Shown piece after piece: positions 8,814 through 42,268 of a stretch of 64,000 nt of DNA. Source of the DNA: Mytilus trossulus (Eukaryota); the NCBI RefSeq assembly GCF_036588685.1, contig NC_086376.1, forward strand, positions 87,399,630 through 87,463,629, read 5' to 3'. The position numbers and the translations under genes were made by a program. Numbering within the stretch: position 1 is the first letter of the stretch; each line of letters opens with the position of its first letter. The notes under the pieces are model-generated. The model saw nothing but the letters and a program-made list of their open reading frames with translations, searched no databases and was not told the DNA's origin.

Positions 8814-10919
8814 TACAAGGCTAAAAATATATTTGTAGAGTCTTCACTGGTTCAGATGTATTTATAATATTATTATTTCTGTGACTTCATTTTACATTAA
8901 TTTGTAAGATCCTTACAATACATGTAGATAATTCAGCTGATCTGTAACAATTCCATATTCATGCCTTATATAATTATCATGAACAGTGTTACATGTATGC
9001 TATATGTAGATTAAAATTGATGAGGAAAGGTATCACCCGGCCACCGATTTAAGCTTGGGATTTCAGGATTGACCCTTTTGTGATTCTGAAATCTATTTTC
9101 AAACTTAAAGAAGTCAGGATTTCATGTTTTTCAGCTCGGTATTTCGAGATCAGGACCCCTCTGACCCCCCCCCCCCCCTCATGTTTCCCCCTTCTATCAG
9201 ATAATCAGACATGCATCACATGGTACATTGTATATCTTCAATTCATACATGTACTATTTTAAAATGATAGAATTAAACATTCTTTTCTGAACACTAATTC
9301 TTCCACATTGGCACAAGATGCCTTCCTTATCTTAATCCTTATATTACAAGGCTAAAAATATATTTGTAGAGTCTTCACTGGTTCAGATGTATTTATAATA
9401 TTATTATTTCTGTGACTACATTTTACATTAATTTGTAAGATCCTTACAATACATGTAGATAATTCAGCTGATCTGTAACAATTCCATATTCATGCCTTAT
9501 ATAATTTATCATGAACAGTGTTACATGTATGCTACATGTAGATTAAAATTGATGAGGAAAGGTATCACCCGGCCACCGATTTAAGCTTGGGATTTCAGGA
9601 TTGACCCTTTTGTGATTCTGAAATCTATTTTCAAACTTAAAGAAGTCAGGATTTCATGTTTTTCAGCTCGGTATTTCGGGATCAGGACCCCTCTGACCCC
9701 CCCTCATGTATCCCCCTTCTATCAGATAATCAGACATGCATCACATGGTACATTGTATATCTTCAATTCATACATGTACTATTTTAAAATGATAGAATTA
9801 AACATTCTTTTCTGAACACTAATTCTTCCACATTGGCACAAGATGCCTTCCTTATCTTAATCCTTATATTACAAGGCTAAAAATATATTTGTAGAGTCTT
9901 CACTGGTTCAGATGTATTTATAATATTATTATTTCTGTGACTACATTTTACATTAATTTGTAAGATCCTTACAATACATGTAGATAATTCAGCTGATCTG
10001 TAACAATTCCATATTCATGCCTTATATAATTTATCATGAACAGTGTTACATGTATGCTACATGTAGATTAAAATTGATGAGGAAAGGTATCACCCGGCCA
10101 CCGATTTAAGCTTGGGATTTCAGGATTGACCCTTTTGTGATTCTGAAATCTATTTTCAAACTTAAAGAAGTCAGGATTTCATGTTTTTCAGCTCGGTATT
10201 TCGGGATCAGGACCCCTCTGACCCCCCCTCATGTATCCCCCTTCTATCAGATAATCAGACATGCATCACATGGTACATTGTATATCTTCAATTCATACAT
10301 GTACTATTTTAAAATGATAGAATTAAACATTCTTTTCTGAACACTAATTCTTCCACATTGGCACAAGATGCCTTCCTTATCTTAATCCTTATATTACAAG
10401 GCTAAAAATATATTTGTAGAGTCTTCACTGGTTCAGATGTATTTATAATATTATTATTTCTGTGACTACATTTTACATTAATTTGTAAGATCCTTACAAT
10501 ACATGTAGATAATTCAGCTGATCTGTAACAATTCCATATTCATGCCTTATATAATTTATCATGAACAGTGTTACATGTATGCTACATGTAGATTAAAATT
10601 GATGAGGAAAGGTATCACCCGGCCACCGATTTAAGCTTGGGATTTCAGGATTGACCCTTTTGTGATTCTGAAATCTATTTTCAAACTTAAAGAAGTCAGG
10701 ATTTCATGTTTTTCAGCTCGGTATTTCGAGATCAGGACCCCTCTGACCCCCCCCCCCCCCCTCATGTATCCCCCTTCTATCAGATAATCAGACATGCATC
10801 ACATGGTACATTGTATATCTTCAATTCATACATGTACTATTTTAAAATGATAGAATTAAACATTCTTTTCTGAACACTAATTCTTCCACATTGGCACAAG
10901 ACGCCTTCCTTATCTTAAT
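8814..10919. repeat. Near-identical 525-531-bp tandem repeat, 4 copies
   Basis: Units start TACAAGGCTAAAAATATATTTG at 8814, 9345, 9870 and 10395. Confidence 0.97.
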
Positions 10920-13337: not shown

Positions 13338-14435
13338 AAACTAGAGGCTCTCAAGAGCCTGTATTACTCACCTGATTCTACAAATGTACTTGGGTTTTTG
13401 AAATCATTTAAAAAAAATAATTGGCTAAAAGTAACAATATACCCTCATAAGGAAAGGAACATTCAGGCCATGTTTGATTTCATTCAATTCAGTGGTTCTC
13501 TAAAAGAAGTCATTTGTATGCATTTCTCATAGGGTCCTATGTTGGACTAGGTCCCCCCCACTGGCGACCGTCTTGGAAGATGGATCAACTACAAAGTAAC
13601 AACACTTGGTCAGCACCTCATAAGGAACATTCATGCCATGTTTGGTTTCATTCCATTTAGTGGTTCTCTAAAAGAAGTCATTTGTATGCATTTCCCATAG
13701 GGTCCTATGTTAAACTAAGTCTTCCGCTGGCAGCCATCTTGGATGATGGATCGGCTACAAAGTAACAACACTTTGTCAGCACCTCATAAGGAACATTCGT
13801 GTCATGTTTGATTTCATTCCATTCAGTGGTTCTCTAAAAGAAATCATTTGTATGCATTTCCCTTAGGGTCCTATGTTAAACTAAGTCCCCCACTGGCGGC
13901 TATCTTGGATGATGGATCAGCTACAAAGTAACAACACTTGGTCAGCACCTCATGAGGAACATTCAGGCCATGTTTGATTTCATTCAATTCAGTGGTTCTC
14001 TTAAAGAAGTCATTTGTATGCATTTCCCTTAGGGTCCTATGTTAAACTAAGTCCCCCACTGACAGCTATCTTGGATAATGGATCGGCTACTAGGTAACAA
14101 CACTTGGTCAGCACCTCATAAGGAAGGAACATTCATGCCATGTTTGATTTTCATTACATTCAGTGGTTCTCTAAAAGAAATCATTTGTATGCATTTCCCT
14201 TAGGGTCCTATGTTAAACTAAGTCCCCCACTGGCGGCTATCTTGGATGATGGATCGGCTACAAAGTAACAACACTTGGTCAGCACCTCATAAGGAACATA
14301 TATTCATGCCATGTTTGATTTCATTCAATTCAGTGGTTCTCTAGAAGAAGTTCAAATGTAAAAAGATAAAGACGACAACGGACGCCAAGTGGTGAGAAAT
14401 GCTCAGTTGGCCCTTCGGGCCAGGTGAGCTAAAAA
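13338..14435 (-). mobile_element. Non-autonomous Helentron-type element with about 5.5 x 166-bp internal tandem repeats
   Basis: Subterminal IR CTCACCTG / CAGGTGAG, hairpins AGGCTCT-CA-AGAGCCT and TGGCCC-TTC-GGGCCA, and 166-bp period (13598, 13764...). Confidence 0.85.
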
Positions 14436-14716: not shown

Positions 14717-14800
14717 ATGGATAACGTCATTAAACAGGGTTACTTAAAGAAATCCAGACCAACAGCTCCTGGAAGTAATCCAGCCAACAGCTTTCTACAG
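14717..14800 (+). CDS. PH-PDZ gene coding exon 1 (MDNVIKQGYLKK...FLQ)
   Basis: ATG at 14717, upstream acceptor TTACAG at 14683, donor GTGGGT at 14801, PH strand 1 motif. Confidence 0.8.
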
Positions 14801-17800
14801 GTGGGTTTTATATTAAATGTTAATGACACATTTATAATTTAAATTTCTTTAGTCTTTTGTCATAAGAGTCAGTGGTTTATTATATAACTAGAATTATTAA
14901 AACAGTATTCTTGTAATGTTGATCATACATAAAGGTTTTCGTTGTCAAATGGGAATTGTTGACCACGACTCAAGGTACAAAATTTTACATTTTATAAAAG
15001 TAATGTATTAACAATCAAACAAACAGATTTTTTTTCATTAATATTTTTTTTCTGCATTTTTATTAAAACTGTCATTAGGAATGTCCAATGGTTCCTACTT
15101 TTCTGAGATCTAATGTGGAAAACAAAATATCTGAAATATTAATACCTGTAAAAAGAGGGATTTTCTAGAATATTATAGTATCTAACAAATAATTGTCCAT
15201 CACATGACAAGGTAAAACATGATACTGTGTACACAATATATGTACTGAACACACTGGCTTTTGATATGTACTCGTTCAACTTTCACTAGTCAACTTACTG
15301 GTTATAACCATGCTGCTCCCAGTGTAAACCATATGTTTCATCATATTGTAATTAAAAATCCCAAGAATATATGTTTATATCATACATTGCGTGTAAGATT
15401 ATATCATTATAGTCTTTATGCTTTGTTTTACAGCTGTTTGAACCAACAAGATGGTTTGTGTTTGGTCTTCGAATTCGTCGTCCATATTTAGAGTATTATG
15501 AGAAAGAGCAGCATGTTTTCACAGCTCAGCCAATCAACAACTTTGATCTTTACGAATGCACTAAAGTTACTTATACTCTGGGTCGTAACAATAGAAACTG
15601 GACATTCTGTTTATTTCTACAAGACAGGGTTCTAGAATTAACAGCAGATTCAAGGTAAATTATCAATTATATTTATTGCCATCTTATTATCTTGAAAAGT
15701 TACATGTCCTTGCTTGTTTTTTTGTAAACATTGTTCTTGTTTGGGATATTACACTAAAAATTTAGATTATAACTGAATATATAATACTCACCTGACTCAA
15801 AGAGTTGGTGTCAGCTTTTGCTCCATGTATCAGATGGCTATTTTTGTTTATCATCATTCATCCTCTGTTAACATCTACAAATATAATCTCCTCTGAAACT
15901 ATCAGGATAAATAACACCAAACTTTTCCACAATCATCCTTATGATATCAAGTTTTACAATTTTGTCTGGTGATACAGCCTACCAAACAACATGACTTCCA
16001 ATGCTAGAAATAGAACAAAGGGTAAAAATGCAAGTACTATTTATTATCATCAGAAAGAGAAATCCGTAGGGTAAGAAATTTTCAAAATGATGAGAACTAC
16101 CTACATACATAGCAGCAATTTCCTCAATTAAAGATTGAAACATTTTTGAGATGTCTATTACATATTTTTCATGATTATTGGACCAGATATCTTTGGAAAT
16201 ATATATTGAACTTTAATTTCAGAACCTCAATTTTAGAAAGACTAAAAACAGTTCTATACATGTGTATAATTTGTATTTTTTTCTTTTTTCAGGGAGGTGA
16301 TGTTAAGTTGGTGTAGGACTTTGGAACATACACTTCAAAATTATGGAGCTTTAGTGAGTATATTAAATGATAACACATTAATTGCCATTGTTTGTATTCC
16401 TTCAGTAACCTTTTTTAATCTGTAGATGAACATAACATAAGCAATATAAGATAATTAAGTAATGCTTATTTAAAGAACGTTGATATTCCTAAATGATATT
16501 TTACATATATAAAGATGCTGTGTGGTTTATATCAATGAGACAAAAACTCAAGGACATACAAAACCAAAAGACTAGACCAACAAAAGACAGGTGTCTATAT
16601 ATAGATCTAGTGTGATTCAGATTTAAATCATTTTGTAGTGTTCTGTACCAGAGACTGTCATGCACCTTGTTGCTAAAATGGTAGTAATAACACATACAGT
16701 GAAATCCTGTAAGATATGTTGTTTATTTTTATTAGAAACATATGCCATCATAACACATATGCTGTGATAATGCTGTAAGATATGTTGTTATTCTTAAAAT
16801 CAAAACACATATACAGTGATTTGTTTATATTTAACAGAAACATGTGCCATCAGAACACATTTACAGTGATTGTTTATTTTAACAGAAACATGTGCCATCA
16901 GAACACATATACAGTGATTTGTTTATATTTAACAGAAACACGTGCCATCAGAACACATATACAGTGATTTGTTTATATTTAACAGAAACACGTGCCATCA
17001 GAACACATATACAGTGATTATCCAGTAAGATACAAACCAAAGAAGTCAGCCAGTCCTCCACCAATAGAAGACAGAGATTCAGCCACTCCCACCCCTCCTC
17101 CCTCTGAACCAGCCCCACCTGTTCCTCGAGAGAATGGACTGGTGCCCTTACAACCCAGAGCAGGAGCAGAATATTGTAATTCAGGTATATTTTAAAATGT
17201 ATTCAATAATAAACTTCTTTTTTTTTCGGAAGTAAGACAAATCTACAATATTCCTATATAGAGGGCAAACCTTTTTCTAAATTGACAGAACAATACAACA
17301 GATGTAATGGCATGTGTTATATCTAGAGTTTAATGAAATTATCCATATATTGCAGATAATAAATTTCTTGCATACTATGGATTCATTATTATTCTTTGTA
17401 TATCAATTTTCGTGGATTTCGTGGGAACAGGCGGACCACAAAATTAAAAGTTCAACGAATTTATAGCAAATTTAGCGTAGGCTTTTATGCAGATTTCAGA
17501 AAAAACACAAATTTAAATATCCACGAACATGTAAGTTTTCCTTAATCCCTGAAAATCGGTACCCACGAAAATAAATGAATCCACAGTATTTCCATTTGAA
17601 AATAAAATATGTATGATTGCCAATGAGACAAATATACACCAGAAACCAAATGATGTAGAAGTAATAAACTATAGGTCACCATACAACCTCGACAATGAGT
17701 AAAACCTATACGTGTACTGCAAAGTCACTTTTGTAATATGTCGATATAATTTCAAGGATGTTTACAGTGGTGTACACTTGAACTTTAACTATTGCAAAAC

Positions 17801-20800
17801 TTTGGCAGACCAGAAGTGATTGATTTTCTAATGACAATTTATACAAAATGAGGAACAGTTGTAGTAAAGACAGATCTTGAAATGTGTTTATTGTTTTAAC
17901 ACAATGTAAGGATTAGATAAGGAAGTGGCAAGCTTTTGGTTTCAGTCTTAGCCTATACAATAGTCAATATATATTGTTACTTTCAATTTAACTATTGTTT
18001 TGATATAAGTGGATTATAACTCTTTGAACTATTTTTAGACTGGGTAGTTGCTGAGAAACCAGAGTCTGAACACAGTGAACCAGACACGTCAGAAGACGAT
18101 TTCGTCAATGAAGAGTTCTTTAAACAGAAAAAGTTAGAAGCATTTAGTAGTAATACATTAAAACCAATATCAAAAACTGAAAATCCTTTCGTATTACACT
18201 CCAGATCAGTTGCCTCACTGCCCCTGAGGTCTTTTAGTTTGCCAGCAGAATATGCAAATGGTACACCTCAGTTACCAGCTAGACCACACAGGAATAAACC
18301 AGTCACCACTGGTACTTCAGAACCTCAGTACAGTCAAGTTAACAAATTAAAACCCAAACCAGAACCAGATTCTGAAGATGTTTATGAATCAGCATTTGAC
18401 TTTGATGATCAGGGTACACAATGTAATCATTCAAATAGAAATACATTAACTGACCTGTCAAGTTATACAACTGATGAATTAGACGAGGGTTTATATGAGG
18501 CAGCTTTTGATGTTCGTGACACACAACCTCTGTTTGAGAAAACAAGTTCTGATCCAATAGTTGAACTTCCCAAGCGAATTTCTAAATTAAAAGACATCGA
18601 TGAACTTTCTTCTGAGAAAAGAAAAAGTCAGATAGCTGTTGAAGAAAATATCTATTCAGGTTTTAATTGTGGTGAAGATAAAAATAATGATGGAAAATTT
18701 GTTGACAAAAAGGCTGATCTTGCAAATAACAATATTAAAAATGAAAACATTTACAGCAATACTAATTCTACGGACATTCCTGTGTCTAAGGGACATTCAA
18801 AAGATAATACAAATCAAAATCAAAATAAAGATCATATTTATTCCAATACTAATGCATGCATTAATACTGAAGCTACATCAATAGAAACAACGATTAACGA
18901 TGAAGAGTCTCAAGGAACTGCTAGTCCCCTCAAACCTCCTAGAAGGAACTCAAGAAATGCATCGAAAAAGAAAGTAGATCCAGGCTATGCAAATTTTGAT
19001 AAAGCAGGAAGTAATAATTCCAAAAAGGTGTCAGAAAAACATGAAAAGACTACAGAAACTGTTCCTTTACCTGTTAGAACTCAGCCTGTGAAGGAAAATA
19101 TTTATGACTTTGGAAAATGTTTACCTCCTCCGGTGAACAAAAGTGAAATAGCAAAGGCTGATTTATATAGTAATTTGAATTCCATTCAAGAACAATCCCG
19201 TGGCAGTGCTGATTTTAAGCAAAGCTCAAAATATACAATTCCCCCACCTTTGAATTTAAATTTTGATCATGCAAGATCTGATTCCTCCTCCCCTGAAACT
19301 CCTCGGAGATTAATTGAGTCACTTAAAATGCCATCAAAATTTGAACCTGTTTCCACCAAAAATGATCTTGATGACTTGCCACCATCACCAACCTCACCAA
19401 CAACACCTGTTAATGATCCTGGTATAGAATTTCCTACTGTTCATAAATCCATAATAAATGTGACTGATATATCTCATAAGAAGCAGTCAACCCCATCACC
19501 AAAACCTCGTCACTCCAGAACTACATCACACTCACCAAAAATTAGACATTCTGAAGACAAAGGCAAGGAGGCACAAAATGTACTGTTACCTAAGTCAAGA
19601 CTCGCTTCTGGAAAACAGGAACGCCCACGATCTTTGATAATGCCACAGCAGTATGACTACATGTCGTCTGTTCATCAACCTGTGCGCAAAAATACTGGAG
19701 AAGCATTATATTCACCTGTGTTAAATAAGAAATGGTTTGGTTCTCAACCAATGCCTGGAATAACCTCTCAACCAAAAGCTGTTGTTGCTTCACAACCAAT
19801 CTTAAATCTTGGTTCCAGTATTGGATCTCAACCAGTATCAAAGAATGGATTTCAACCAATTTCTACAGAAACAGACGAAATTTATCAAGTGCCAAAAAGA
19901 GCCAGATCTGTAAAGGTAAAGCATGAACCCCAACCAACTTTCATTAGTCGTGATATTGAGAGTAATGCTCTTGGTTCCTCACCAAGCCATGATGGCTTCC
20001 AGTTTAATGTTCCTAAGCGACAGACGTCTGCTGAGGATAATGATGATGAGGACAATGATTCACATGATTATGAAGATGCCACTATGCGTCATGGTGAGCC
20101 ACCTCTGCCACCAAGACGAACCAATTCAACTGCTATGAATAACCGTAGTCAGAGTGTGTATGTGCCCTGTAATATTAACCCAGAAGCATCAAACAAAGGT
20201 AAGAATGAAAAGTTTAGCTTCACTAGAAGTTATGAATGTGTGATGACTGTGGATTCATTTTTTTTTCATGTGTACCAATTTTTGTGAATTGAAGGAAATA
20301 ATTAATTTCATGGATATTTTATTTCTTGATTTTGCAAAACTTGGCATACAAACTTATAGAAATGTTTTTAATTCATTGAACAATAGAAATCTTGGATAAC
20401 AATGTGTTTACCTTCAAAATTCATTAAAATTAGTGTCCCACAAAAAATAATAAATCCACAATATTTTAAAAACAAAGAAGTCCTTTTTGTTTTTTTAGTG
20501 GTAATTAAAAAAAAAAGAGAAAAAAAGCAGGTGTGAACACAATAGACTAGGTCAATACTGTTCTCGTTTGAATTGTTTTACATTGTCATTTCCAGGCCTT
20601 TTATAGCTTACTATGGGATATGAGCTTTGCTCATTGTTAAAGGCTGTAAGGTGACCTTTAGTTGTTTACTTCTGTGCCATTTGGTCACTTGCGGAGAGTT
20701 GTCTCATTGGCAATTATACCTTCTTTTTCATATATACAATAGAAGCTATCATCCACAGAAGGCTTATGACCAGAGTTTTTGATGAACACAAATCACTGCT

Positions 20801-23800
20801 TTTCTTTACTTTTTCTCCAAGCAATCTCACTTTTTATACAAAAACCTATGTGCAGACCAAACTGAATGTATTTGAGACTCCACTTTCGTACCATGACATA
20901 TTAATCCATTCTAATGAATTGGCTACTGTGACTAGCCATAGTGATTATGTTATGGTAGGATGTAACATTTTGGGGATATATAATACAAATAGTATTGAAA
21001 ACAATATTCCATACAACCTATCCATGAACATTAAAAAAAAATATCAATGAAATACTCAAATAAACAAAATGTTAATAATTTTGAGTCATGTATGTGTATA
21101 ACCATTTATATTTGTAAGGAAAATGACATAAATTGAATCTGGTATGTTTTCTAAAAATATCAAAAGTAATATTTAAATATGGAATTATCTTTCTTTGTTC
21201 ATTATATTTTTGTTCCCTTCAAATGCTTAATACACTGCAATCTTGAATTAACCTTTATAAATAAATGCAATCTTTACAAGGGCTCTGATTGTAAAACTAC
21301 TGACTCTGTTGTTTATATTTAAAACAAAAAAAACAGAGCACCATATTGATATTTATCTTATAAGTGTTGAAATATGTGCTTGATTATGTCTGTTATATAC
21401 TTGTTTATCTTTTTAGTGATTGTAAGACAGACATCATTACGTGAGAGACAGAGGATTACATCATCGCCAGGATTGGTGACTGTTCTCCCGTTAAAACAGA
21501 GTGAAATAGACATTTTACAGGAAGAACAACATTCACATGGGATCATTGTTAAAATATCACCTGCAGCTTGTCAAAAGATAGCTTTGGTGGATAGCTTTAA
21601 TGGAGTATGGTATGTATTAAACTTGTCAAAAGATAGCTTTGGTGGATAGCTTTAATAAAGTATGGTATGTATTAAACTTGTTAAAAGATAGCTTTGGTGG
21701 ATAGCTTTAATAAAGTATGGTATGTATTAAACTTGTTAAAAGATAGCTTTGGTGGATAGCTTTAATAAAGTATGGTATGTATTAAACTTGTTAAAAGATA
21801 GCTTTGGTGGATAGCTTTAATAAAGTATGGTATGTATTAAACTTGTTAAAAGATAGCTTTGGTGGATAGCTTTAATAGAGTATGGTATGTATTAAACTTG
21901 TTAAAAGATAGCTTTGGTGGATAGCTTTAATGGAGTATGGTATGTATTAAACTTGTCAAAAAATAGCTTTGGTGGATAGCTTTAATGTAGTATGGCATGT
22001 ATTAAACTTGTCAAAAGATAGCTTTGGTGGATAGCTTTAATAAAGTATGGTATGTATTAAACTTGTTAAAAGATAGCTTTGGTGGATAGCTTTAATAGAG
22101 TATGGTATGTATTAAACCTGTCAAAAGATAGCTTTGGTGGATAGCTTTAATGGAGTATGGTATGTATTAAACTTGTTAAAAGATAGCTTTGGTGGATAGC
22201 TTTAATGGAGTATGGTATGTATTAAACTTGTTAAAAGATAGCTTTGGTGGATAGCTTTAATAGAGTATGGTATGTAATAAACTTGTTAAAAGATAGCTTT
22301 GGTGGATAGCTTTAATGGAGTATGGTATGTATTAAACTTGTTAAAAGATAGCTTTGGTGGATAGCTTTAATAGAGTATGGTATGTAATAAACTTGTTAAA
22401 AGATAGCTTTGGTGGATAGCTTTAATAGAGTATGGTATGTAATAAACTTGTTAAAAGATAGCTTTGGTGGATAGCTTTAATAAAGTATGGTATGTATTAA
22501 ACTTGTTAAAAGATAGCTTTGGTGGATAGCTTTAATAAAGTATGGTATGTATTAAACTTGTTAAAAGATAGCTTTGGTGGATAGCTTTAATAAAGTATGG
22601 TATGTATTAAACTTGTTAAAAGATAGCTTTGGTGGATAGCTTTAATAAAGTATGGTATGTATTAAACTTGTTAAAAGATAGCTTTGGTGGATAGCTTTAA
22701 TAAAGTATGGTATGTAATAAACTTGTTAAAAGATAGCTTTGGTGGATAGCTTTAATGGAGTATGGTATGTATTAAACTTGTCAAAAAATAGCTTTGGTGG
22801 ATAGCTTTAATGTAGTATGGCATGTATTAAACTTGTCAAAAGATAGCTTTGGTGGATAGCTTTAATAAAGTATGGTATGTATTAAACTTGTTAAAAGATA
22901 GCTTTGGTGGATAGCTTTAATAGAGTATGGTATGTATTAAACCTGTCAAAAGATAGCTTTGGTGGATAGCTTTAATGGAGTATGGTATGTATTAAACTTG
23001 TTAAAAGATAGCTTTGGTGGATAGCTTTAATGGAGTATGGTATGTATTAAACTTGTTAAAAGATAGCTTTGGTGGATAGCTTTAATAGAGTATGGTATGT
23101 AATAAACTTGTTAAAAGATAGCTTTGGTGGATAGCTTTAATGGAGTATGGTATGTATTAAACTTGTTAAAAGATAGCTTTGGTGGATAGCTTTAATAGAG
23201 TATGGTATGTAATAAACTTGTTAAAAGATAGCTTTGGTGGATAGCTTTAATAGAGTATGGTATGTAATAAACTTGTTAAAAGATAGCTTTGGTGGATAGC
23301 TTTAATGGAGTATGGTATGTATTAAACTTGTCAAAAGATAGCTTTGGTGGATAGCTTTAATAAAGTATGGTATGTATTAAACTTGTCAAAAAATAGCTTT
23401 GGTGGATAGCTTTAATGTAGTATGGCATGTATTAAACTTGTCAAAAGATAGCTTTAATGGATAGCTTTAAAAGAATGGGGTATGTATTAAACTTGTCAAA
23501 AATAGCTTTGGTGGATAGCTTTAAAAGAAAGGGGTATGTATTAAACTTGCCAAAAGATAGCTTTGGTGGATAGCTTTAATGTAGTATGGTATGTATTAAA
23601 CTTGCCAAAATATAGCTTTAATGGATAGCCTTAAAAGAATGGGGTATGTATTAAACTTGTCAAAAATAGCTTTGGTGGATAGCTTTAATAGAGTATGGTA
23701 TGTAATAAACTTGTTAAAAGATAGCTTTAGTGGATAGCTTTAATGGAGTATGGTATGTATTAAACTTGTTAAAAGATAGCTTTGGTGGATAGCTTTAATA

Positions 23801-26800
23801 GAGTATGGTATGTAATAAACTTGTTAAAAGATAGCTTTGGTGGATAGCTTTAATGGAGTATGGTATGTATTAAACTTGTCAAAAGATAGCTTTGGTGGAT
23901 AGCTTTAATGTAGTATGGTATGTATTAAACTTGCCAAAATATAGCTTTAATGGATAGCCTTAAAAGAATGGGGTATGTATTAAACTTGTCAAAAATAGCT
24001 TTGGTGGATAGCTTTAATAGAGTATGGTATGTAATAAACTTGTTAAAAGATAGCTTTAGTGGATAGCTTTAATGGAGTATGGTATGTATTAAACTTGTTA
24101 AAAGATAGCTTTGGTGGATAGCTTTAATAGAGTATGGTATGTAATTAACTTGTTAAAAGATAGCTTTGGTGGATAGCTTTAATAGAGTATGGTATGTAAT
24201 AAACTTGTTAAAAGATAGCTTTGGTGGATAGCTTTAATGGAGTATGGTATGTATTAAACTTGTCAAAAGATAGCTTTGGTGGATAGCTTTAATAAAGTAT
24301 GGTATGTATTAAACTTGTCAAAAAATAGCTTTGGTGGATAGCTTTAATGTAGTATGGCATGTATTAAACTTGTCAAAAGATAGCTTTAATGGATAGCTTT
24401 AAAAGAATGGGGTATGTATTAAACTTGTCAAAAATAGCTTTGGTGGATAGCTTTAAAAGAAAGGGGTATGTATTAAACTTGCCAAAAGATAGCTTTGGTG
24501 GATAGCTTTAATGTAGTATGGTATGTATTAAACTTGCCAAAATATAGCTTTAATGGATAGCCTTAAAAGAATGGGGTATGTATTAAACTTGTCAAAAATA
24601 GCTTTGGTGGATAGCTTTAATAGAGTATGGTATGTAATAAACTTGTTAAAAGATAGCTTTAGTGGATAGCTTTAATGGAGTATGGTATGTATTAAACTTG
24701 TTAAAAGATAGCTTTGGTGGATAGCTTTAATAGAGTATGGTATGTAATAAACTTGTTAAAAGATAGCTTTGGTGGATAGCTTTAATGGAGTATGGTATGT
24801 ATTAAACTTGTTAAAAGATAGCTTTGGTGGATAGCTTTAATAGAGTATGGTATGTAATAAACTTGTTAAAAGATAGCTTTGGTGGATAGCTTTAATGGAG
24901 TATGGTATGTATTAAACTTGTTAAAAGATAGCTTTGGTGGATAGCTTTAATAGAGTATGGTATGTAATAAACTTGTTAAAAGATAGCTTTGGTGGATAGC
25001 TTTAATAGAGTATGGTATGTAATAAACTTGTTAAAAGATAGCTTTGGTGGATAGCTTTAATGGAGTATGGTATGTATTAAACTTGTCAAAAGATAGCTTT
25101 GGTGGATAGCTTTAATAAAGTATGGTATGTATTAAACTTGTCAAAAAATAGCTTTGGTGGATAGCTTTAATGTAGTATGGCATGTATTAAACTTGTCAAA
25201 AGATAGCTTTAATGGATAGCTTTAAAAGAATGGGGTATGTATTAAACTTGTCAAAAATAGCTTTGGTGGATAGCTTTAAAAGAAAGGGGTATGTATTAAA
25301 CTTGCCAAAAGATAGCTTTGGTGGATAGCTTTAATGTAGTATGGTATGTATTAAACTTGCCAAAATATAGCTTTAATGGATAGCCTTAAAAGAATGGGGT
25401 ATGTATTAAACTTGTCAAAAATAGCTTTGGTGGATAGCTTTAAAAGAAAGGGGTATGTATTAAACTTGTCAAAAGATAGCTTTGGTGGATAGCTTTAAAA
25501 GAATGGGGTATGTATTAAACTTGTCAAAGATAGCTTTGGTGGATATCTTTAATGGAGTTTGGTATGTATTAAATTGGTCAAAAGATAGCTTTAGCAAATA
25601 GCTTTAATGGGGTGTGATATGCATTAAATTTGATAAAAAATAGCTTAAGTGGATAGCTTTAAAGGACTGTGGTATGTATTAAATTGTCAAAAGATAGTAC
25701 ATGTACATGTAGTATTAGAGGATTATTTAAGCTAGGTATGTCAAATAATATTGAGGTTTCCATGAGAAAAGATTGGCAGGTTTAAGAAAGCAACAGTGGG
25801 CATATGAAGAGTAGAGCTCTCATAATGCATATACACAATACAGAAAAAAAAAGAAATTCAGACAAATGACCTAAAATACGAATCAAAGAACTCTGATCCA
25901 GACAATTTTGTTTGTACAATGTACTTTAACTTGATTATTACAGGATTATAGGATGGGATTTTAAACATTATCCAAGGTTATCTGAGAGTATTCACATTGG
26001 TGACGAAGTTACTAAAATTAACGACCTCAGGGTAACTAACGCTAACATGGCTAAGAAAGTGTTGAAATCGTGCAATACAGAACAGATAGATCTGGTTATA
26101 AAACGTCTTCCTTACGCTAAAGTGATGGCCATACGAAGACATCAGACTGGTGAAAATCTAGGATTACAACGTTTAGGAGGAACTGCTGAGGTCAGCATAC
26201 TTATATTGATAGGTCAAAATACATTCAGCCAATCAGAAGATGTGTTACTTAGAAATAAGCTAAATAAAATTAAAGTGCAGAAAATAATTTTAATATCATC
26301 TACCATTGAGTCAATTTAAGGGTTTGCTATTATCTGTACCCATTAACAAGCTGTTTGTAATCTGTCTTAATTGGCCCCATCATCCTAATTCTAAAATTAG
26401 CTGAATTAAAGACTTTTCTTCATTATCTATATATGTAGTATGGTCGATTGAACTTACATCCAAAGCTACCATAGATTTAGTATCATATTTAGTTCATAAA
26501 AGTTAGAAATATTCTTCAGAGCTGCATAGGCATTCAATATTAATCTGTCTATTAATTCTGTTATTGCTCTCCTTTAAACTTATGTTAACTTTTCTCATAA
26601 ATGAATAAATACAAGAGACATCTGTAGGCTTCTATTTTGTTTGGACTTATGATGTGATGAAAGTAATACTAGTTTGAGTGATTGCATTCTAATTTTCCAG
26701 ATAACCTATGTGGACCCCTCAGGACTAACTGCTCAACATGGTTTGACAAAACATGCTTCATGTGTGGAGAGTGAGGGAACCTGTAACTGGTGGATTACAG

Positions 26801-28005
26801 AAATAAATAATAGACCACTCAATCTGTCCTTCAAAGGAAATGAGGTAGGGATACAAATAAACACTCAATCTGTCCTTCAAAGGCAATGAGATAGGGATAT
26901 GAATAAACACTCAATTTGTCCTTCTACAAATTTTCTTATGAAAATGGCTTCTGAACATATGTAAAAGTAAAATATAAAAAAGAAGATGTAGTATAATTGC
27001 CAATAAGACAACTCTCCACAAGAGACCAAATAGAACACAAGTTAACAGCTATAGGTCACCGTACAGTTTTCATCAATGAGCAAAGACCATACCTCATAGT
27101 GAGCTTTAAAAGGCCCCAAAATCACAAATGTAGAACAATTCATAAGAGAAAACCAATCGCCTACCGGTGTCATTAATGTAAAGAAAAATAGAGGAAAAAC
27201 AAATATGTAACACAGCAACAAACAACAACTACTGAATAAATTCACAGGCTCATGAATTGGGACAGACACATATATACAAAATGTTGCAAAATTAAATATG
27301 TTAGCAGATACCCAATTAAAACAAGTTTTCCACAGGCACAACCGAACTTTGTATCCAAATCTTTATTATCTATAGAAAAATTAGGTGAAGTTTTAAGTAA
27401 TTTATGGTAATGAAATCCTTTTCTTAATATCTTACCAGTAATACATAAATTATGTTGTTAAAATCTTAAACATCACAACAGGCATTGGCATAGCGAAAGA
27501 GTTGTGAAATATAAAGACTGTAAGTAGGTATAAAATGCCTGCTTTTATACATGTACTATATATCTTGATCTATATCAATTTGAGTTCTTATACTATTAGT
27601 TACATAGTGTGTTAGTGACCTACTACAATATACATGGGGTCAGTAAATTCCATATGGGGTGAGAGCTTAATTCCAGTTGAAAGGAAAAAAAACCTGGGGA
27701 AATATATGCAATAATAAATTTATGCCCTTGGCACATAGATTCAAGATACTTTAATTACATTTTGTTTAAAGTTAAATAGTATACCAAAACATATGAATTC
27801 ATTATTTTTCAGATTGAGAGTACTTAGCTAAATGAAAGTAGAATACTAGTATACACATAAACCCTTTATTTTTCAGATTGAGGCAAAGCTAAACGCAGTT
27901 GGCAAAGACATTTCCATTGTTGTTCATCCATCTGATTTTATAAAGGAACTTAAAAGACAGCTGAAAAAGATGAGAAACTTTAAAGACTTCATGGCTGTGG
28001 CATAA
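14717..28005 (+). CDS. PH-domain / Tyr-motif-rich / tandem-PDZ adaptor protein, about 1145 aa, 9 coding exons
   Basis: join(14717-14800,15434-15654,16293-16353,16986-17184,18039-20198,21417-21609,25944-26190,26701-26844,27877-28005). All introns are GT-AG with matching phases (0,2,0,1,1,2,0,0) and the total is 3438 nt open to TAA. PH hallmarks: VIKQGYLKK, RWFVF, LEYYE, EVMLSWCRTL. PDZ-like hallmarks: IHIGDEVTKIND, ENLGL, WITEINNRPL. Confidence 0.9.
15434..15654 (+). CDS. PH-PDZ gene exon 2 (PH core)
   Basis: TTTTACAG acceptor; LFEPTRWFVFGLRIRRPYLEYYE...LELTADS; GTAAAT donor. Confidence 0.9.
16293..16353 (+). CDS. PH-PDZ gene exon 3 (PH C-terminal helix)
   Basis: Long polypyrimidine tract + CAG; (R)EVMLSWCRTLEHTLQNYGAL; GTGAGT donor. 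Confidence 0.9.
16710..17020 (+). repeat. 48-50-bp tandem repeat spanning the intron 3 / exon 4 acceptor
   Basis: TTTAACAG|AAACAYGTGCCATCAGAACACAT with AG ending at 16837, 16885, 16935 and 16985, plus degenerate copies at 16710-16810. Confidence 0.9.
16986..17184 (+). CDS. PH-PDZ gene exon 4 (Pro-rich)
   Basis: KHVPSEHIYSDYPVRYKPKKSASPPP...AEYCNS; donor GTATAT at 17185. Confidence 0.85.
17373..17588. mobile_element. Tc1/mariner-type MITE (TACTGTGGATTCATT TIR)
   Basis: TACTATGGATTCATT...AATGAATCCACAGTA; related copies at about 20245-20462 and 31263-31478. Confidence 0.75.
18039..20198 (+). CDS. PH-PDZ gene exon 5 (2160 nt, disordered linker)
   Basis: Contains most of the 682-aa ORF in frame; acceptor TTTTTAG at 18038, donor GTAAGA at 20199. 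Confidence 0.93.
21417..21609 (+). CDS. PH-PDZ gene exon 6
   Basis: (V)IVRQTSLRER...CQKIALVDSFNGV(W); donor GTATGT at 21610; phase 2 matches exon 7. Confidence 0.9.
21567..25698 (+). repeat. 55-bp satellite, about 75 copies; unit = last 43 nt of exon 6 + first 12 nt of intron 6
   Basis: CTTGTCAAAAGATAGCTTTGGTGGATAGCTTTAATGGAGTATG|GTATGTATTAAA repeated from 21567, 21622... Confidence 0.97.
25944..26190 (+). CDS. PH-PDZ gene exon 7 (PDZ1 and start of PDZ2)
   Basis: TTACAG acceptor; (W)IIGWDFKHYPRLSESIHIGDEVTKIND...LGGTAE; donor GTCAGC. Confidence 0.9.
26701..26844 (+). CDS. PH-PDZ gene exon 8 (PDZ2)
   Basis: TTTTCCAG acceptor; ITYVDPSGLTAQHGL...WWITEINNRPLNLSFKGNE; donor GTAGGG. Confidence 0.9.
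26816..26925 (+). repeat. 46-bp tandem repeat (about 2.4 copies) across the exon 8 donor
   Basis: CACTCAAT.TGTCCTTC at 26816, 26862 and 26908. Confidence 0.85.
26975..27310. mobile_element. Dispersed SINE-like repeat ('aagaagatgt...gccaatgagacaact' family)
   Basis: At least six related copies in the window. Confidence 0.7.
27877..28005 (+). CDS. PH-PDZ gene last coding exon
   Basis: IEAKLNAVGKDISIVVHPSDFIKELKRQLKKMRNFKDFMAVA*; stop TAA at 28003-28005. Confidence 0.88.
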   Translation: MEAKLNAVGKDISIVVHPSDFIKELKRQLKKMRNFKDFMAVA

Positions 28006-33552: not shown

Positions 33553-34277
33553 CATCAGTCCGTCTGTCAGTCCTGTTTCTTGTCATCGCAACTCCTCTCA
33601 AACCACACAACAGAATTTCACGAAACCTTTTCAGATGATAAGGACATACTATGTAGTTGTGCATATTGACGGGAAATTGCGATTCAATTTTTTTTCTAGG
33701 AGTTACGCCCCTTTGAACTTATTTACTTTAATGTACTACTGCAACAGTTTGTCATCACAACTCCTCTCAAACCACACAACAGAATTTCACGAAACCTTTT
33801 CAGATAATAAGGACATACTATGTAGTTGTGCATATTGACGGGAAATTGCGATTCAATTTTTTTTCTAGGAGTTACGCCCCTTTGAACTTATTTACTTTAA
33901 TGTACTACTGCAACAGTTTGTCATCACAACTCCTCTCAAACCACACAACAGAATTTCACGAAACCTTTTCAGATAATAAGGACAGAATATGCAGTTGTGC
34001 ATATCGACGGGAAATTGCGATACAAATTGTTTTCTAGGAGTTACTCCCCTTTGAACTTATTTACTTTAATTTACTACTGCAACAGTTTGTTATCACAACT
34101 CCTCTCAAACCACACAACAGAATTTCACGAAACCTTCTCAGATAATAAGGACATACTATGTAGTTATGCATATCGACGGAAAATTGTGTTCATTTTACTT
34201 GCGAAGTGAGAATTTGTTTCTTCAGTGACAATATGAAGACGTGGGGTATGTGAGCGTGCTCACAAAGGTTCTTTAAT
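33496..34277 (+). mobile_element. Non-autonomous Helentron-type element with about 3.7 x 169-bp internal tandem repeats
   Basis: T-rich start, ATACCCCA / TGGGGTAT subterminal IR, CCGT/CTGT microsatellite and 3' hairpin GTGAGC-GT-GCTCAC. Confidence 0.85.
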
Positions 34278-34654: not shown

Positions 34655-35933
34655 TATATGTTGTGTACAAGTTATCATTTTGTACAAATAATAATTTGTA
34701 CAAAAATATTGTTCAAATTAAAATTTGTATTTTGACTTTGTACGAATTGTAATTTGTACAAAAAGTGCTTGTACAAATTACAATTTGTACAAAATAGGAC
34801 AAAAATTCACTTATAACTTGTACAATAATTTTTCAAATGGATTTTGGAGAAAAAAAATCATTGATACACGTTATTGAATTGCTACTAAATGACCAGACAG
34901 TACACCTGAGTTACAAAATTCAAAAGTAGTTCTTTATCAATCGTTTGAGCATGTGATCTAGTGAGTTATGGAATCAGGTATTGCATACCATCTTTTGACT
35001 CTCAAATCGATAACAACTTGTTTTACAGACATTTTAACTGTTTCATATAGCGAGCGTTGAAGCTCAGGAATCGTTGCTGTGAATAAATATGTGTTTAAGT
35101 ACTTCATTCAGACTTTTAGAGAAAATAAATATCCCAGAAGATTAAACACCCCATTTGGTTAGGAATACGACTGCTAAAGTCAGGAATATGTCAGTTGTTT
35201 TTTTGCTGTTTTTGTATCAATTTGTTTTTCAACAAGGATTAAGTTATGTAAATCCAATCTTTTGATGTACCAATTACAAATACAAATTATCACTTGCTTA
35301 CAGAAAGATATGATTGTTTTCATTGACTTTTAGAAATAACAAATAAGTGGCATCAAATCTTTTGCGATCCTTCTCACGATCATCAAAACGCTGTACACGA
35401 TCTTTCACGATACAAAATAGGGAAATTTTACAAATATAATCGTTTGCAAAGTTCCTGAATAAAAAAAAAATACATCAAAATAACGATAAGAATTAATCAA
35501 GCAGTACTATTGAGTGATATTTTTTTTAAGAAAAAGACGTGTATGTATTAAAAATTTGAAAAAAATCCTATTTGTTTACTTTTTGTTTTTTTAAAAATTT
35601 CGAAGATCAACCTGCCTTTTGTAGTTGGGTATAAACGGTGTATTATGTTACTACGGTTTAGTGTGTGGTCAGTTAATTACAATTCTATCGTGTGAAACAT
35701 TGCATTTTTCACAAAAAATCGTATTTAAAACTGTTGTAAAAGTTATAAGTGAATTTTGGTCAAATTTTGTACAAATTGTAATTTGTACAGGCACGTTTTG
35801 TACAAATTATAATTTGTACAAAGTCAAAATACAAATTATAATTTGTACAATATTTTTGTACAACTTATAATTTGTACAATATTTTTGTACAACTTATAAT
35901 TTGTACAAAATGATAACTTGTACACAACATATA
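34655..35933. mobile_element. Foldback-like element with about 200-bp TIRs built of TGTACA motifs
   Basis: TATATGTTGTGTACAAGTTATCATTTTGTACAAAT... is the reverse complement of ...ATTTGTACAAAATGATAACTTGTACACAACATATA. Confidence 0.85.
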
Positions 35934-36033: not shown

Positions 36034-36477
36034 GGTGAAATCACCCTTACATCGCAACAGGAACACTTCACAGATGAAATAATTAGCAAACTTGGCTAAT
36101 TTGTCACATTGTTCAAAAAATATCCATCCTCAAAACTAACGATACTTGAAATCCCAGTCTACTCTATCACAGAATGGAACAGGTACAAAGGACATAAAAA
36201 CCCTGAAACCTTTAAAGACCAAGATAGCCAATTGCAAAAACAAATTGAAAACATAAACGAGTGGATCCACACAACAAACCAGGAACTTGGTAGTCGCTCG
36301 CCATTACTCAACCATCATCTTCGTGCTCGAAAACAACAAGCAAGAGGGAAACACAAGCCTTGCAAAAAGTATTATAACGTCAAATTGTACAAAGACGGTA
36401 TTCATCCAAAGCAGCTGTTAGCTAAAGCCTGGCTGGCAGAAATAGTTGAAAAAGTTCGTAGAGACTGTTGGGCATAA
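36034..36477 (+). pseudogene. LINE 5' ORF, SGNH/GDSL esterase-like C-terminal part
   Basis: LYKDGIHP followed by a helix (block V DxxHP). The frame extends back to the insertion point with one TAA. Confidence 0.7.
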
Positions 36478-36634
36478 CATAGTGACACTTATATTAATGC
36501 TTGAAGATCAGGAGGCATGGAATGACCAAGCCACACTGAAACCTTCAAGTACTTGATATCAAGCTGTCGATACACTGTCTGATCTGCATAAAAACAACTG
36601 GACTACCTCAATAACGTCTAATACTAAAACAAGA

Positions 36635-38744
36635 ATGGCAAGTTCCATTATACAGAGAGCCAAAATTACAGACTCGCACAAAAAGGTGACAGAGCTTATA
36701 ATTGGTGACTACACTCTTTAGTTGATAAAACCCTGAAGAAAAAACTTGAAGCCACTAAACGTTTGCAACATGTTGAATACAAATTTACCAACGGAGGCGT
36801 GGTTATCACATCCGATGCAGCAACATATTCAGAATGGCGGCAATGAGATATTATGAAACACTCCCCCCAAATCATGGAGTGGCACACATAAAGAAAACAA
36901 CAGACAGCACTCGACTCCATACAGTCCAAAACACTGTGCGAGTAGTACAACCATCGAACAAAAGCTACACAGTGAATATATACTATACAACAAGCAGACT
37001 ACTGGTGAATGGTAAAAATGTGTCTGACTTTATTGATAGAGACTTGCAGAACATCCACAATATTATTTCTTCTAGTACAAGCAATAACACCAAACTTAAT
37101 ATTAATGACCTCAATGCTATGTTACGGGAACAGCTGACTAGCATACTAAATGCAAATCAAATGAAGTATGAAGAAGTTAATAGCCAAAATACACAAGATA
37201 AAGATTCTGATAACATTGCTTGTATAAAATGCACCAGAAATTGTAGGACAAAAAGTACTTACTGCTCGACAGGCAACCACTGGGTTCACTACAGTTGTCA
37301 AAACCTAACACAGGAGGACATAACAGAGGTGTAAAAAGGTGAAAATAACACCTACACCTGTACATTCTGTACTGGAGACTCCAAGAAACTAGCTTTCCCA
37401 AATACTCTGCAAATAGCCAACTGCAACCAACTAAATGACCTACTACAAGAAAAGGTAACATTAAGAACAGATGAAACTACAATGAGCAACAAAGACCTGT
37501 GCTTTGTGTGCGATCAACAAACTGATAACACACCGTGGGATGTTTGTGATCTTTGCAATAATATGAGCCACACTACCTGTATGAACATTGAAAATAATGA
37601 ACACCACTGTAACGCATGCATAGGTAGTGAAATAATGGAATACACCACTAGCGTAATTAAAACGGATAGGCTCCAGATAAGCCAATATAACTTGACCGAG
37701 CCAATAGAGGTCATATCTGAGGAAAATACAAGCACTGTTGAGTCTGAGACAACCCTCAAAACAGTAATATCTAGTAACAGTCCTCAACCAAAACAGTGTG
37801 TCTTGAAAAAGATTGTACTACCAGAAAGGATAACAAAAGCTTCACTGCAAACCCAAGAAGAACTCCAACTCAAACATAGTGAACTCAGAGAAAGGGAGTT
37901 AAAACTTAGGAAAACTGAAGAGCAACTTAAACTTAGGGAAAAAGTGGTTAATGAATACAAAAAAGAGAGAATACTACTAGAAACAAGATGCCAGAGACTG
38001 GAGGCAAGAAACTGTGAATTAGAACAAACGGTAAAAAGCTTAAGGAAAAGCATTGAAATGAGCAACTTGTCAGAAGAAACCAGCCGAAATGAACCAGCTC
38101 ATACACACGTGAGGAATTCTTTGCAAACAGGCAAGCCGGAAATGAATGATGTGTTCAATATAGTGCAAACACAGCTAAACAACAAGGTTCTGGCCCTACA
38201 CGAAAAGCTAACAAACATAGTCTTCTCTAAAATAGACAAACAACTGGACAAAATTAGCTTGGCAGACATGAATGAAATGGAGAAAATAAATCCTGAAATG
38301 TATAATGTTGAAAGATCTACACCATTACAATCAAAACAGGACAAGAAAGAAACGGAAGAAATAACTCCTCAACTTAACAACATTGAAAGAAATACACTAT
38401 TGCAATCAAAACAGGACAAAACACCGATTACTTCCAAGAACGCAACAGAAACTGCTCCCCATGTAGGGCAGCCGGTACAGAACAATTCAAAACGATATAT
38501 GCAACCAAGTAATCCTGCTAACAAATGGAACCTAGCCAACAGCCTAACAGGTCAACCACTTGTATACAGAGGATACCAGAAATACAGTTTGCAACAACCT
38601 ATGGACCAAGCAGGTGTCCCATTCAACCAAAAACAAGGCAGACGCAACCCACAGATTATAAACAATACAACCACAGAGAAAATTATACAACCAACAAATG
38701 CTCACTTTTTAGACAGACCAGGCCTCAAGAAACAGAACATGTAG
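36635..38744 (+). pseudogene. LINE ORF1-like protein with two PHD-type Cys/His clusters and a coiled coil (frameshifts and stops)
   Basis: CIKC..C..GNHWVHYSC..(stop)..CTFC; CFVC..CDLC..HTTC..CNAC; ELRERELKLRK heptads. Confidence 0.8.
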
Positions 38745-41700
38745 CAGGAACACAAATCGATAGCAACAAGGGGAAGGGACATCTAACAATAGCCTCCTAT
38801 AATTGCAAAAACATCAAAACCTGTGGTCATGCAATCGATGAACTATTAAAATCAAATCAATTAATCTTATTACAAGAACACTGGCTTTTCCAATCACAAA
38901 TTGATATGTTAAGCGACCTGCACTCAGAAATCAACTATGCAGGAAAGGGAGTCGATATTAATAACCCTTTACTCCCGATGTATATGCCAAGAGGCTATGG
39001 CGGTGTTGCTATCATATGGCAAAAAAGTATCGATCACTTAATAAAACCATTATCTGAAGGATCAGAAAAGATGCAATGCATAGAAATATTAAGCAATAGT
39101 GCGCACAACTTGCTGCTTGTGTCAGTTTACTTACCGTCCAAAGGAAGTCGAGACCATGTTGAGGAATTTTTAGAATGTATTGACCAACTCTACGAACTTT
39201 ATCAAAAATACTATGGAACGCACGACATAATAATTGGAGGAGACCTAAACGAGGACTTAAACGATACTGCGACGTCAAGAACAAGAAATAGATATTTGAG
39301 GAACTTTATCTCAGAGTGTAACTTGTCCTTCAACAATGCAGGAAAAACCTTCATCAAGGCATCTGGAGTAGAATGTTCGGAACTTGATTACTTTCTACAC
39401 ACTCTCAAAGACCCAAAGCTATACTCAAACAAAACAGTTCTACACTCCGTTAAAATGAATGTGTCAGATCATCATCCAGTACAAATGACGTGTGTGTTTG
39501 ATTTCGCGAAGGTCACACAAAAGCAAAGGAAAAGTAGCAACGTCACCCCAAAAATAAAATGGGACAAAATGGACATGGACCTATATAAAGCTATGGTCGA
39601 CACATCATCAAAGTTGATATTGGAAAAATTAGACAATAAACAGATAGGACTGGAAGAATCTATTCAGACAACATGTGAGATAATGGCCAACTCAGCCATT
39701 AAATCCTCCAACATCAAACCCTCGTATAATGCAAAACCGAAACTTAAAGTATGGACACCTGCAATACAGGTTGCTCTTAAGGAGATGCGAAATAGCTACA
39801 ATGCATGGGTAAAATCAGGAAAACATGAAGATCTAGACAATGTCCTTTTCTTGGAGAAACAACGAACAAAACAACTTTTTCGAAAATCAGTCCGTGTCGA
39901 AATTGCAAAAAGAAGAGAGGACGAAAAAGAGCTGATCATGGAAACTAGAACCAGAAATATGAAACTATTCCATAGGCTAGTTAGAAATACACGTAAAAAA
40001 GGCGGAGAAATTATAATGGACTTGAATGTAAATGGACACTGCTATACGGGAGATGAAAACATGCTAGCAGGTTTCAAGGAACATTTCCGCACACTAGCAA
40101 CATACGATGAAAACATCAACATTGACAACGACTATCATCAAAATGTGGAACATGAAATTCATATAATAAATCAATTGGTTAAAGGCAAGAACATTCCTGA
40201 TGCATCAATGGAAGAAATTTCAAACGCAATCAAAAATATCAACAAGGGTAAATCTGCTGACTACTATGGCATCACAATTGAACATATAGTTAATGCGGGA
40301 GAAATCATGGTCATCTTGCTCCAAAGCATCATAAATGAAATTTTCCAACAAGGATATGTGCCAGATCTCCTAAAAATCGGACTTCTCACACCAATTTTCA
40401 AAAACAAAGGAACTAAGAATGATGCAGGAAATTACAGAGGAATAACAGTGCTGCCTGTAGTGAGCAAAATAATAGACACAGTGCTTAAAAATAGAACACA
40501 ACCATCAGTAAAAGCCGTGCAACATAAATATCAACGTGGATTCACAAGTGGTTCAGGACCAATGAACTCAGCACTACCAGTGGAAGAAGTGTATCGTGAA
40601 GTTCATGACGGTGAAACAGAAGCACAAATAATACTACTGGATGCAAAATCAGCGTTTGACAAAGTGATACATACCCATATGATGAGAAGAGTGTACCAAG
40701 CAGGTATCGAAGACAAACATTGGTCACTAATAAGTAGTCTGCACCAAAACGCTGCCAGTACCAGCAAATGGGGAGGATATATCTCTGAGTGCTTCCAAGT
40801 CTCATTGGGTGTTCGTCAAGGTGGAATACTCAGCACGGACCTATACAAGCTCTACGTAAATCCACTACTAGACAGATTGGAAAACTCAAATCTTGGTATA
40901 AGGATTGGTAATATAACATGCAATGCCAGCGCCTGTGCTGATGATATAGCTTTAATGAGTACAAAAGAAGACGACACACAAGTGCTGATAAATATGGCGC
41001 ACGATTTTGCGTACATGGAAGGCTATGAGCTACAGCCCCAAACAAGTGTGGCGTTAAACCTCTTGTCAAAAACTCATAAAAAGAACAATACCAACGAGTG
41101 CATATTCAACATTGGAAATAACGTTATGCCAAATGTCAAGCAGGCACTACATCTTGGAATAATTCGAACAACATCAATGAAGGAAAACGTAACTTTAAAT
41201 GTGGAGGAAAATATCAAGAAAGCTAGAAGAAGTGCATAGGGCTTATTTGGCGGTGGTTTCCATGGACATAATGGACTAGACCCAGAAAAACTGGTACACC
41301 TGTTTAAAACATACATTAGCCCTGTGTTACTCTACGGAATGGAACTATTACTACCCAAACCAGCTATGCTACTTCAACTAGAAAAATTCCAGAAAAGATT
41401 ACTGAAACAGCTGCTTTCACTTCCTACATCAACTCCAGACCCGGCGGTGTACATTCTATCAGGAATACTACCCGTCGAAGCGCAAATTGACAAAAGAGCA
41501 CTGGGATTACTTAACAACATCTGTAACCAAGATGAAAGCAGCACGGAAAAACAACTGGCGCGAAAACAAATCAGTGTTAAATCGCTGGACAGTAATAGCT
41601 GGTTTATACAACTCAAAGAGATCCTTTCAAAATATAACATGGATGAAATCAACACCTACCTTGATATACCTATGAAGAAAGAAAAATGGACCACATTGAT

Positions 41701-42268
41701 AAACCGAGCTACCCAAAAACACTGGAGCGAGTCAATAACAAGAATGGTTCCTTACTACAAAGGCCTACAACACTTAAATTACACGGAATTTCACCAAGGG
41801 AAGCTACACCCTCTAATAAAAATCAAATGTCAATCAGCTAGAGACATAGGAAGAATTCCTCCAAAGCTAAAAATTCTAACCGGCACATACATTTTGCAGT
41901 CACACAGAATCAAAATGTATGAAAATGAAACAGACCTGATCTGTCTTATATGTCACCAAGGAGACGAAACGCTGGAACATTTTATCCTGGAATGTGAAGG
42001 GTTAGCCGATACTAGGAATTCAATTATGGATGAAATTAGTGCCATTCTGAAGGATTCAAGAAATGTAGACTTTCATAAGCAATCATCAAAAGTAAAGATG
42101 CAAATTCTACTGGACATTACAATGCTGCGGGAAAATCTAAAACTAGATGCACAACTAATGGCCGAAATTGAATATTGTAGCCGCCGACTTCTCTTTTTGT
42201 TACACACCACCAGATACCGTTTCCTGTCAAAAGGATGGAAAAAGGACAAGAAAAACGTAAAGGTGTAA
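38525..42268 (+). pseudogene. LINE ORF2: AP endonuclease + reverse transcriptase + CCHC, with one in-frame TAG at 41237-41239
   Basis: SYNCK, LQEHWL, GDLN, SDHHPV; NYRGITVL, LDAKSAFD, GVRQGGILS, CADD; CLIC..ETLEHFILEC. The ORF at 41324-42268 is in the same frame. Confidence 0.95.

Follow-up and report, generated by a model that had tools for sequence, protein, structure and literature searches.

A 75-unit minisatellite spanning an exon/intron junction of a putative syntenin-like PH-PDZ gene in Mytilus trossulus

Minisatellites that repeat the end of an exon together with its donor site have been described in human F7, where the first unit of a 37-bp variable number tandem repeat (VNTR) in intron 7 spans the exon boundary and solely the most upstream donor is used (PMC1557585). 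The accessible part of that report states that successive donor knockouts each activate the next donor, that stronger downstream sites with consensus values up to 91 fail to compete and that site choice is the same for 1 to 12 copies (PMC1557585). Similar minisatellites are named there for CBS (a 31-bp VNTR in intron 13), 6-16 (intron 2), LMNB2 and PDGF (intron 4) (PMC1557585), and the nomenclature of the CBS VNTR has been treated separately (PMC2630376). Here, an array of this known kind, unusually large, is described from 64,000 nucleotides of the mussel Mytilus trossulus (the window; contig NC_086376.1, positions 87,399,630 to 87,463,629, forward strand; coordinates below count from its first letter). 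It begins at the end of the sixth coding exon of a gene with a PH domain and a predicted PDZ tandem, and it is likely harmless and without a function of its own.

In lancelets, comparable arrays known as 'mirages' occur in Adh3, the globin genes BflGb6 and BflGb9, troponin C and PGBD5 (PMC3087553). In the available text they are tandem duplications of a 5' or 3' exon boundary that leave splicing undisturbed, vary in length and have decayed edges; how they arise is described there as unclear (PMC3087553). Several can occur in one gene, as with the two in lancelet PGBD5 (PMC3902484), while boundary repeats that create new introns are a related phenomenon with a different outcome (PMC2812944). 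The literature searched, outside which most subscription journals lie, contained no report of a junction-spanning minisatellite in a mollusc, and a search for long-read VNTR splice studies offered no closer precedent among those listed.

The array and its host gene

Tandem Repeats Finder delimits the array at 21567-25697 (period 55, 75.3 copies, 92% matches, score 6638), and a script that located donor positions counted 75 units, spaced by 55 bp in 66 of 74 gaps and by 54 bp in the remaining 8. The units comprise 21 sequence types. Their donor hexamer is GTATGT in 69, GCATGT in 5 and ATATGC in 1, leaving GTATGT in 68 of the 74 extra copies, all of them intronic, and none of these 74 is identical to unit 1. 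When a 25-base core of the unit was searched in the window with up to three mismatches, all 69 matches fell within the array, against none in each of 100 shuffles. A preliminary description of the locus, made from the sequence alone, had proposed about 75 copies at 21567..25698 with 43 coding nucleotides in the first unit, most of them keeping GTATGT and together filling about 95% of intron 6; these figures stand, the computed share being 94.3% of a 4334-nt intron (21610-25943), and the number 6 holds on a count of coding exons only. The array had been called a satellite, and a repeat array it is, but minisatellite is the better term because the unit measures 55 bp. A dispersed satellite or transposon-borne family does not describe it within the window, given that the array accounts for 69/69 core matches and that its unit codes for a peptide under conservation.

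The exonic part of unit 1 (21567-21609) encodes (A)CQKIALVDSFNGV and two bases of the following W codon. Joining nine AG/GT-bounded exons through the donor of unit 1, hereafter donor 1, restores the conserved protein: the product is identical at 1145/1145 positions to the M. trossulus RefSeq model P0008 (Table 1). Reading through donor 1 from the W codon instead gives WYVLNLSKDSFGG and then an in-frame TAG at 21647-21649, 15 nt 5' of donor 2. Because this stop precedes donor 2, every later donor would yield a stop-carrying message without the PDZ domains, as the preliminary description had said. Within unit 1 there is also a 9-base direct repeat (GATAGCTTT, the two copies 14 bases apart, 21577-21604) that overlaps the DSF codons and may have helped to seed slippage; DSF itself is replaced by DCL in a more distant relative, P0004.

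The N-terminus of the host protein carries a PH domain (E 1.1e-6). At the C-terminus, Pfam PDZ scores stay under the curated cut-offs, yet the 77-sequence alignment of this region matches syntenin-1 in a profile search (E 7.6e-9). A model of the C-terminal 217 residues of a relative, P0031, folds as a PDZ tandem with a predicted local distance difference test score (pLDDT) of 95.3 and resembles the syntenin PDZ tandem 8blu_A (Foldseek E 2.1e-12, template modelling (TM) score 0.70); P0031 stands in here for the window's protein and is 81% identical over the region to the M. californianus protein. Two syntenin-like PDZ folds in tandem are therefore supported by modelling, and the assignment of the array to PDZ1 made in the preliminary description is borne out by the predicted fold, not by the Pfam scores. 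Human syntenin-1 and the mussel C-terminus would share the tandem fold at about 22% identity, whereas the N-terminal PH domain and long middle region set the mussel protein apart from human syntenin-1. In the model, the repeated peptide forms two early strands of PDZ1 (residues 36-41 and 44-50), which on the usual PDZ topology would correspond to strand two and a portion of strand three. Exon 7 matches uncharacterised Mytilus proteins. At E <= 0.001 the peptide family numbers 300 relatives, with G49 and W50 unvarying in 77/77 aligned sequences, and the exon is presumably older than the array because its peptide is conserved so far outside it.

Table 1. Features of the host gene and its junction arrays (window coordinates).
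Feature	Position	Strand	Description
Host gene, coding span	14717..28005	+	Nine exons; N-terminal PH domain, long low-complexity middle, predicted C-terminal syntenin-like PDZ tandem
Coding exons 1-3	14717-14800, 15434-15654, 16293-16353	+	
Coding exons 4-6	16986-17184, 18039-20198, 21417-21609	+	
Coding exons 7-9	25944-26190, 26701-26844, 27877-28005	+	
Coding exon 6	21417..21609	+	193 nt, the last 43 nt being the exonic part of unit 1; AG/GT boundaries, P0008 identity, tblastn map
Unit 1	21567..21621	+	43 coding nt, donor TG/GTATGT (GT 21610-21611) and intron start, 12 intronic nt
Further copies	21622..25698	+	74 copies of 54-55 bp and one partial, intronic; degenerate 3' edge
In-frame TAG	21647..21649	+	Reached on skipping donor 1; 5' of all later donors
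Intron 3' end	25699..25943	+	Non-repeat, with acceptor (ttgattattacag)
Coding exon 7	25944..26190	+	247 nt; remainder of PDZ1 and start of PDZ2
Second junction array	16799..17019	+	50 bp x 4.5; copies acceptor and first 34 nt of coding exon 4
Third junction array	26816..26924	+	46 bp x 2.4; copies end and donor of coding exon 8

The order of the units records ordinary tandem-repeat turnover, with a homogenised interior and a divergent edge. Blocks of 12, 12, 10 and 8 units are duplicated exactly, the longest such run in 2000 shuffles of unit order being 6, and 9-10 changes separate the final two units from unit 1. On a weak test, donor positions are no more preserved, and no more depleted, than other columns: leaving out three edge units, 1/6 columns of the donor core and 16/49 others vary (Fisher p 0.65, low power), and with the edge units the counts are 3/6 and 25/49 (Fisher p 1.0, low power). 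Were the coding part of unit 1 converted by the whole tract of each of the 74 other copies in turn, 40 would give nonsense, 24 missense and 8 a frameshift, and 2 would be silent; with shorter tracts, silent outcomes would be frequent. Meanwhile, the unit peptide is identical in the 12/12 Mytilus-type proteins examined. The array is thus a hazard to the exon and not a store of sequence, since 72 of the 74 copies would damage the protein by whole-tract conversion. In metagenomes, a search for the orthologous intron returned 598 pattern matches, none confirmed, and a search for the repeat core returned no match.

Donor choice and competing explanations

Use of donors 1, 2, 3 or 4 would give exon 6 a length of 193, 248, 303 or 358 nt, and donor 1 lies nearest of all to the exon's own acceptor and at the greatest distance from the downstream one. 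The preliminary description had pictured a cell that must choose the donor farthest from the acceptor among its look-alikes; the productive donor is indeed the farthest, but F7 provides a precedent in the part of the report available, and the choice is no new paradox (PMC1557585). Of the 12 Mytilus-type proteins, 11 carry GVW/IIGW, the peptide expected from the donor 1 junction. The twelfth, P0018, is an unspliced read-through of the exon, 72 residues long and ending in GVWYV; it could stem from an intron that begins elsewhere or from the end of a contig, and is uninformative on donor choice. Three of the twelve are presumably translated from transcripts, being full-length products of 3.7-4.4 kb Logan contigs. 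Furthermore, the four best RNA-labelled runs contain 0.20-0.24 of the sampled words (the two best 0.23-0.24), a share that weakly fits exons 6 and 7 alone (0.231 of distinct 31-mers) on the assumption that distinct words were sampled and with the RNA label being the tool's guess. This comparison leaves aside 11 of 20 runs with shares below 0.2 and the DNA runs of organism B (0.29-0.38), whose words are not separable into flank and array. It is likely, on this analysis, that donor 1 is used in the array-bearing allele and that the later donors are mostly silent.

Two further ways in which the spare donors might be used or hidden were rejected. New cassette exons within the array would need acceptors, and no acceptor-like site with at least 10 pyrimidines in 14 was found in the array or elsewhere in the scanned intron. 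RNA structure that masks the spare donors fares no better, with a z score of -1.25 for units 1-5 and 22 of 200 shuffles folding equally well.

The array is probably a neutral minisatellite that came from the exon 6 junction, grew by turnover and is tolerated through use of the first donor. A single tandem duplication across the exon 6/intron junction would have founded it, sparing the exon because the extra copy landed in the intron, and slippage and unequal exchange would have enlarged it. The first donor may win by a 5'-most or exon-definition rule, as in F7, and the array would be tolerated because the spliceosome would use donor 1 and treat the remainder as intron. The premature stop lies 406 nt 5' of the last junction, a position that fits the distance rule of nonsense-mediated decay (NMD) for messages made from later donors, so rare leaks to donor 2 or beyond would probably be cleared. 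Selection on the protein would hold unit 1 in place while the other units drift.

Several observations weigh against this neutral account. RefSeq models are themselves predictions, and the three transcript-type proteins are 99% M. edulis-like and about 95.6% identical to P0008; their alleles may or may not carry the array. By a simple count of U1 pairing, the authentic donor is surpassed by one G-U pair in 12 of the 75 copies, and 40 others share the score class of unit 1 at 8 matches (39 without unit 1). The conservation test on donor bases is low in power. F7 was tested to 12 copies and in mammalian cells, and human CBS and 6-16 each use two pseudo-sites besides the real one, as far as the accessible text goes (PMC1557585). 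Finally, each of the three coding-span arrays whose period exceeds 30 sits on a splice junction, a pattern for which random seeding is a poor account.

The leakage in CBS and 6-16 would also suit a dosage dial, in which a fraction of the transcripts is spliced from donor 2 or a later one, takes up the TAG and is degraded, so that array length or the sequence of unit 2 sets the level of the PH-PDZ protein. Retention of GTATGT in 68 of 74 extra copies and a stop upstream of all later donors are what such a dial would require, and the mussel array, with its 12 slightly better U1 matches (simple count), exceeds the 12 copies to which F7 was tested. We consider it improbable. In the available portion of the source, F7 site choice did not change from 1 to 12 copies, and CBS and 6-16 leak to the nearest copies (PMC1557585), so that adding units past the first few would be expected to have little effect; the donor bases lack excess conservation, albeit in a low-power test, and the RNA-run word shares fit, weakly, the exons alone. 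A broader version, with dosage varying between alleles, is slightly more improbable: here junctions would seed arrays again and again (three out of three), and the biggest array would divert transcripts to stop-carrying donors in a proportion that depends on its length. If dosage were set in this manner, the 5'-most-donor rule would saturate at high copy number, providing a natural allelic series for donor competition, and array length would set the level of a syntenin-like PH-PDZ scaffold. The preliminary description had offered, besides a copy-number rheostat, a gene-conversion donor and an element dense in sites for the U1 small nuclear ribonucleoprotein (snRNP). A reservoir that diversifies the binding strand of PDZ1 could draw on the modelled position of the copied peptide over two strands at the start of that domain, and U1 recruitment on a 4-kb stretch of pre-mRNA with 69 U1-complementary sites. 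The data above tell against both ideas, with no copy equal to unit 1, only 2 of 74 whole-tract conversions predicted to be silent (shorter tracts would be so in many cases), one peptide in 12/12 proteins and donor bases that are not over-conserved (Fisher p 0.65-1.0, low power), and either is highly improbable.

A bias in where arrays arise concerns their origin: tandem duplications may be born more often, or persist longer, at junctions, and this is compatible with neutrality. Arrays might persist there if, for example, the unit that the gene needs is protected from deletion and time and again gives rise to new copies. With seeds inside exons disallowed, the chance of covering a junction is 0.095-0.118 per array, giving about 0.001 for all three arrays and about 0.01 for the two that the preliminary description had not prompted, and the accessible reports of lancelet PGBD5 likewise describe several mirages in one gene while calling their origin unclear (PMC3902484, PMC3087553). 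Against this, the count is post hoc, concerns one gene and uses a span chosen by the analyst; four larger arrays outside the coding span (137-2807, ~8814-10919, 13454-14351 and 33580-34186) were left uncounted, and no junction was found in them, where coding exons only were mapped; and the junctions of a second small gene in the window lack any array. The pattern is a hint that such arrays are seeded or anchored by junctions; a junction-biased origin is possible, if on the unlikely side. Inflation of a short junction repeat by the assembler, to which the exact duplication of several 8-12-unit blocks might point, is very improbable. The array is built of 21 unit types whose blocks are ordered and nested, and its edge has decayed, which speaks against inflation, as does the best DNA run, which contains 0.72 of the sampled words against at most 0.527 of distinct 31-mers without the array, so that, again assuming that distinct words were sampled, array-specific words are present in its contigs; that run is possibly the assembly's own sample and is uninformative on array length.

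Other tandem arrays and repeats in the window

The array at exon 4 places spare acceptors at 16837, 16885 and 16935, all out of frame, upstream of the true acceptor that ends at 16985, and more decayed partial copies extend back to about 16686. In the array at exon 8, AT replaces GT in the second copy. A polymorphism of exon 8 (GNE, GSE or GTE) was considered as a product of conversion from this array and rejected, the array copy itself encoding GNE.

Beyond the coding span, a 34-bp x 78.5 minisatellite (88% matches) occupies 137-2807, where neither inspection by eye nor the list of open reading frames (ORFs) indicates a coding exon and neither end showed an exon junction. A 525-bp unit, longer than the 500-bp period limit, recurs as four almost identical tandem copies at ~8814-10919, 5' of the first coding exon. 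A 166-bp x 5.3 array at 13454-14351 and a 169-bp x 3.6 array at 33580-34186 have flanks that presumably resemble bivalve satellite or Helitron-linked repeats. AT-rich clusters based on TTGTACAA at 34664-34794 and 35765-35924, about 1 kb apart, are possibly the inverted ends of a transposon. They are followed at ~36100-42268 by an A-rich element that looks by eye like a long interspersed nuclear element (LINE), with long ORFs of 469, 905 and 342 aa that by eye resemble endonuclease and reverse transcriptase and are split by a stop at 41239. The second small gene, at ~57350-59390 on the + strand, has three apparent exons and a cysteine-rich end, and no tandem array was seen at its junctions.

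Comparison with known junction-spanning minisatellites

The mussel array is one more junction-spanning minisatellite, probably of little consequence. Its interest lies in scale and host: at 75 copies it is larger than the published human cases, which have 5-25 in the accessible text (PMC1557585), and it is found in a mollusc, making it a naturally occurring extreme on which the 5'-most-donor rule can be tried in a non-mammal. Three junction arrays in one gene also bear on why such repeats form at junctions. Furthermore, the array can mislead programs that map reads or predict genes, because 43 coding bases recur 75 times.

Three of five traits by which such minisatellites may be recognised are present in the mussel array, namely a terminal unit that spans the boundary, intronic copies that carry the splice signal, and turnover. 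F7 and the mussel gene, so far as the F7 source is accessible, are alike in layout: the first unit spans the boundary, the donor is repeated in the intron and the 5'-most donor is the productive one. The donor contexts are similar as well, TGG/gtgggt in F7 and ATG/gtatgt in the mussel. They differ in size, with 5-9 copies and 4 exonic nt per unit in F7 against 75 copies and 43 exonic nt here, and in host, a mammal against a mollusc; donor use and length polymorphism are proven for F7. CBS, 6-16, LMNB2 and PDGF, in the portion of the report at hand, also repeat an exon end with its donor, 10-25 times, and the CBS unit of 24 exonic and 7 intronic nt is exon-heavy like that of the mussel. The lancelet mirages, as their available descriptions have them, differ in belonging to a cephalochordate, in size for BflGb6 (3-6 units) and in having length and somatic instability shown for Adh3. 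They nevertheless resemble the three mussel arrays in affecting both types of exon boundary, in occurring more than once per gene, in their concerted evolution and in their decayed edges.

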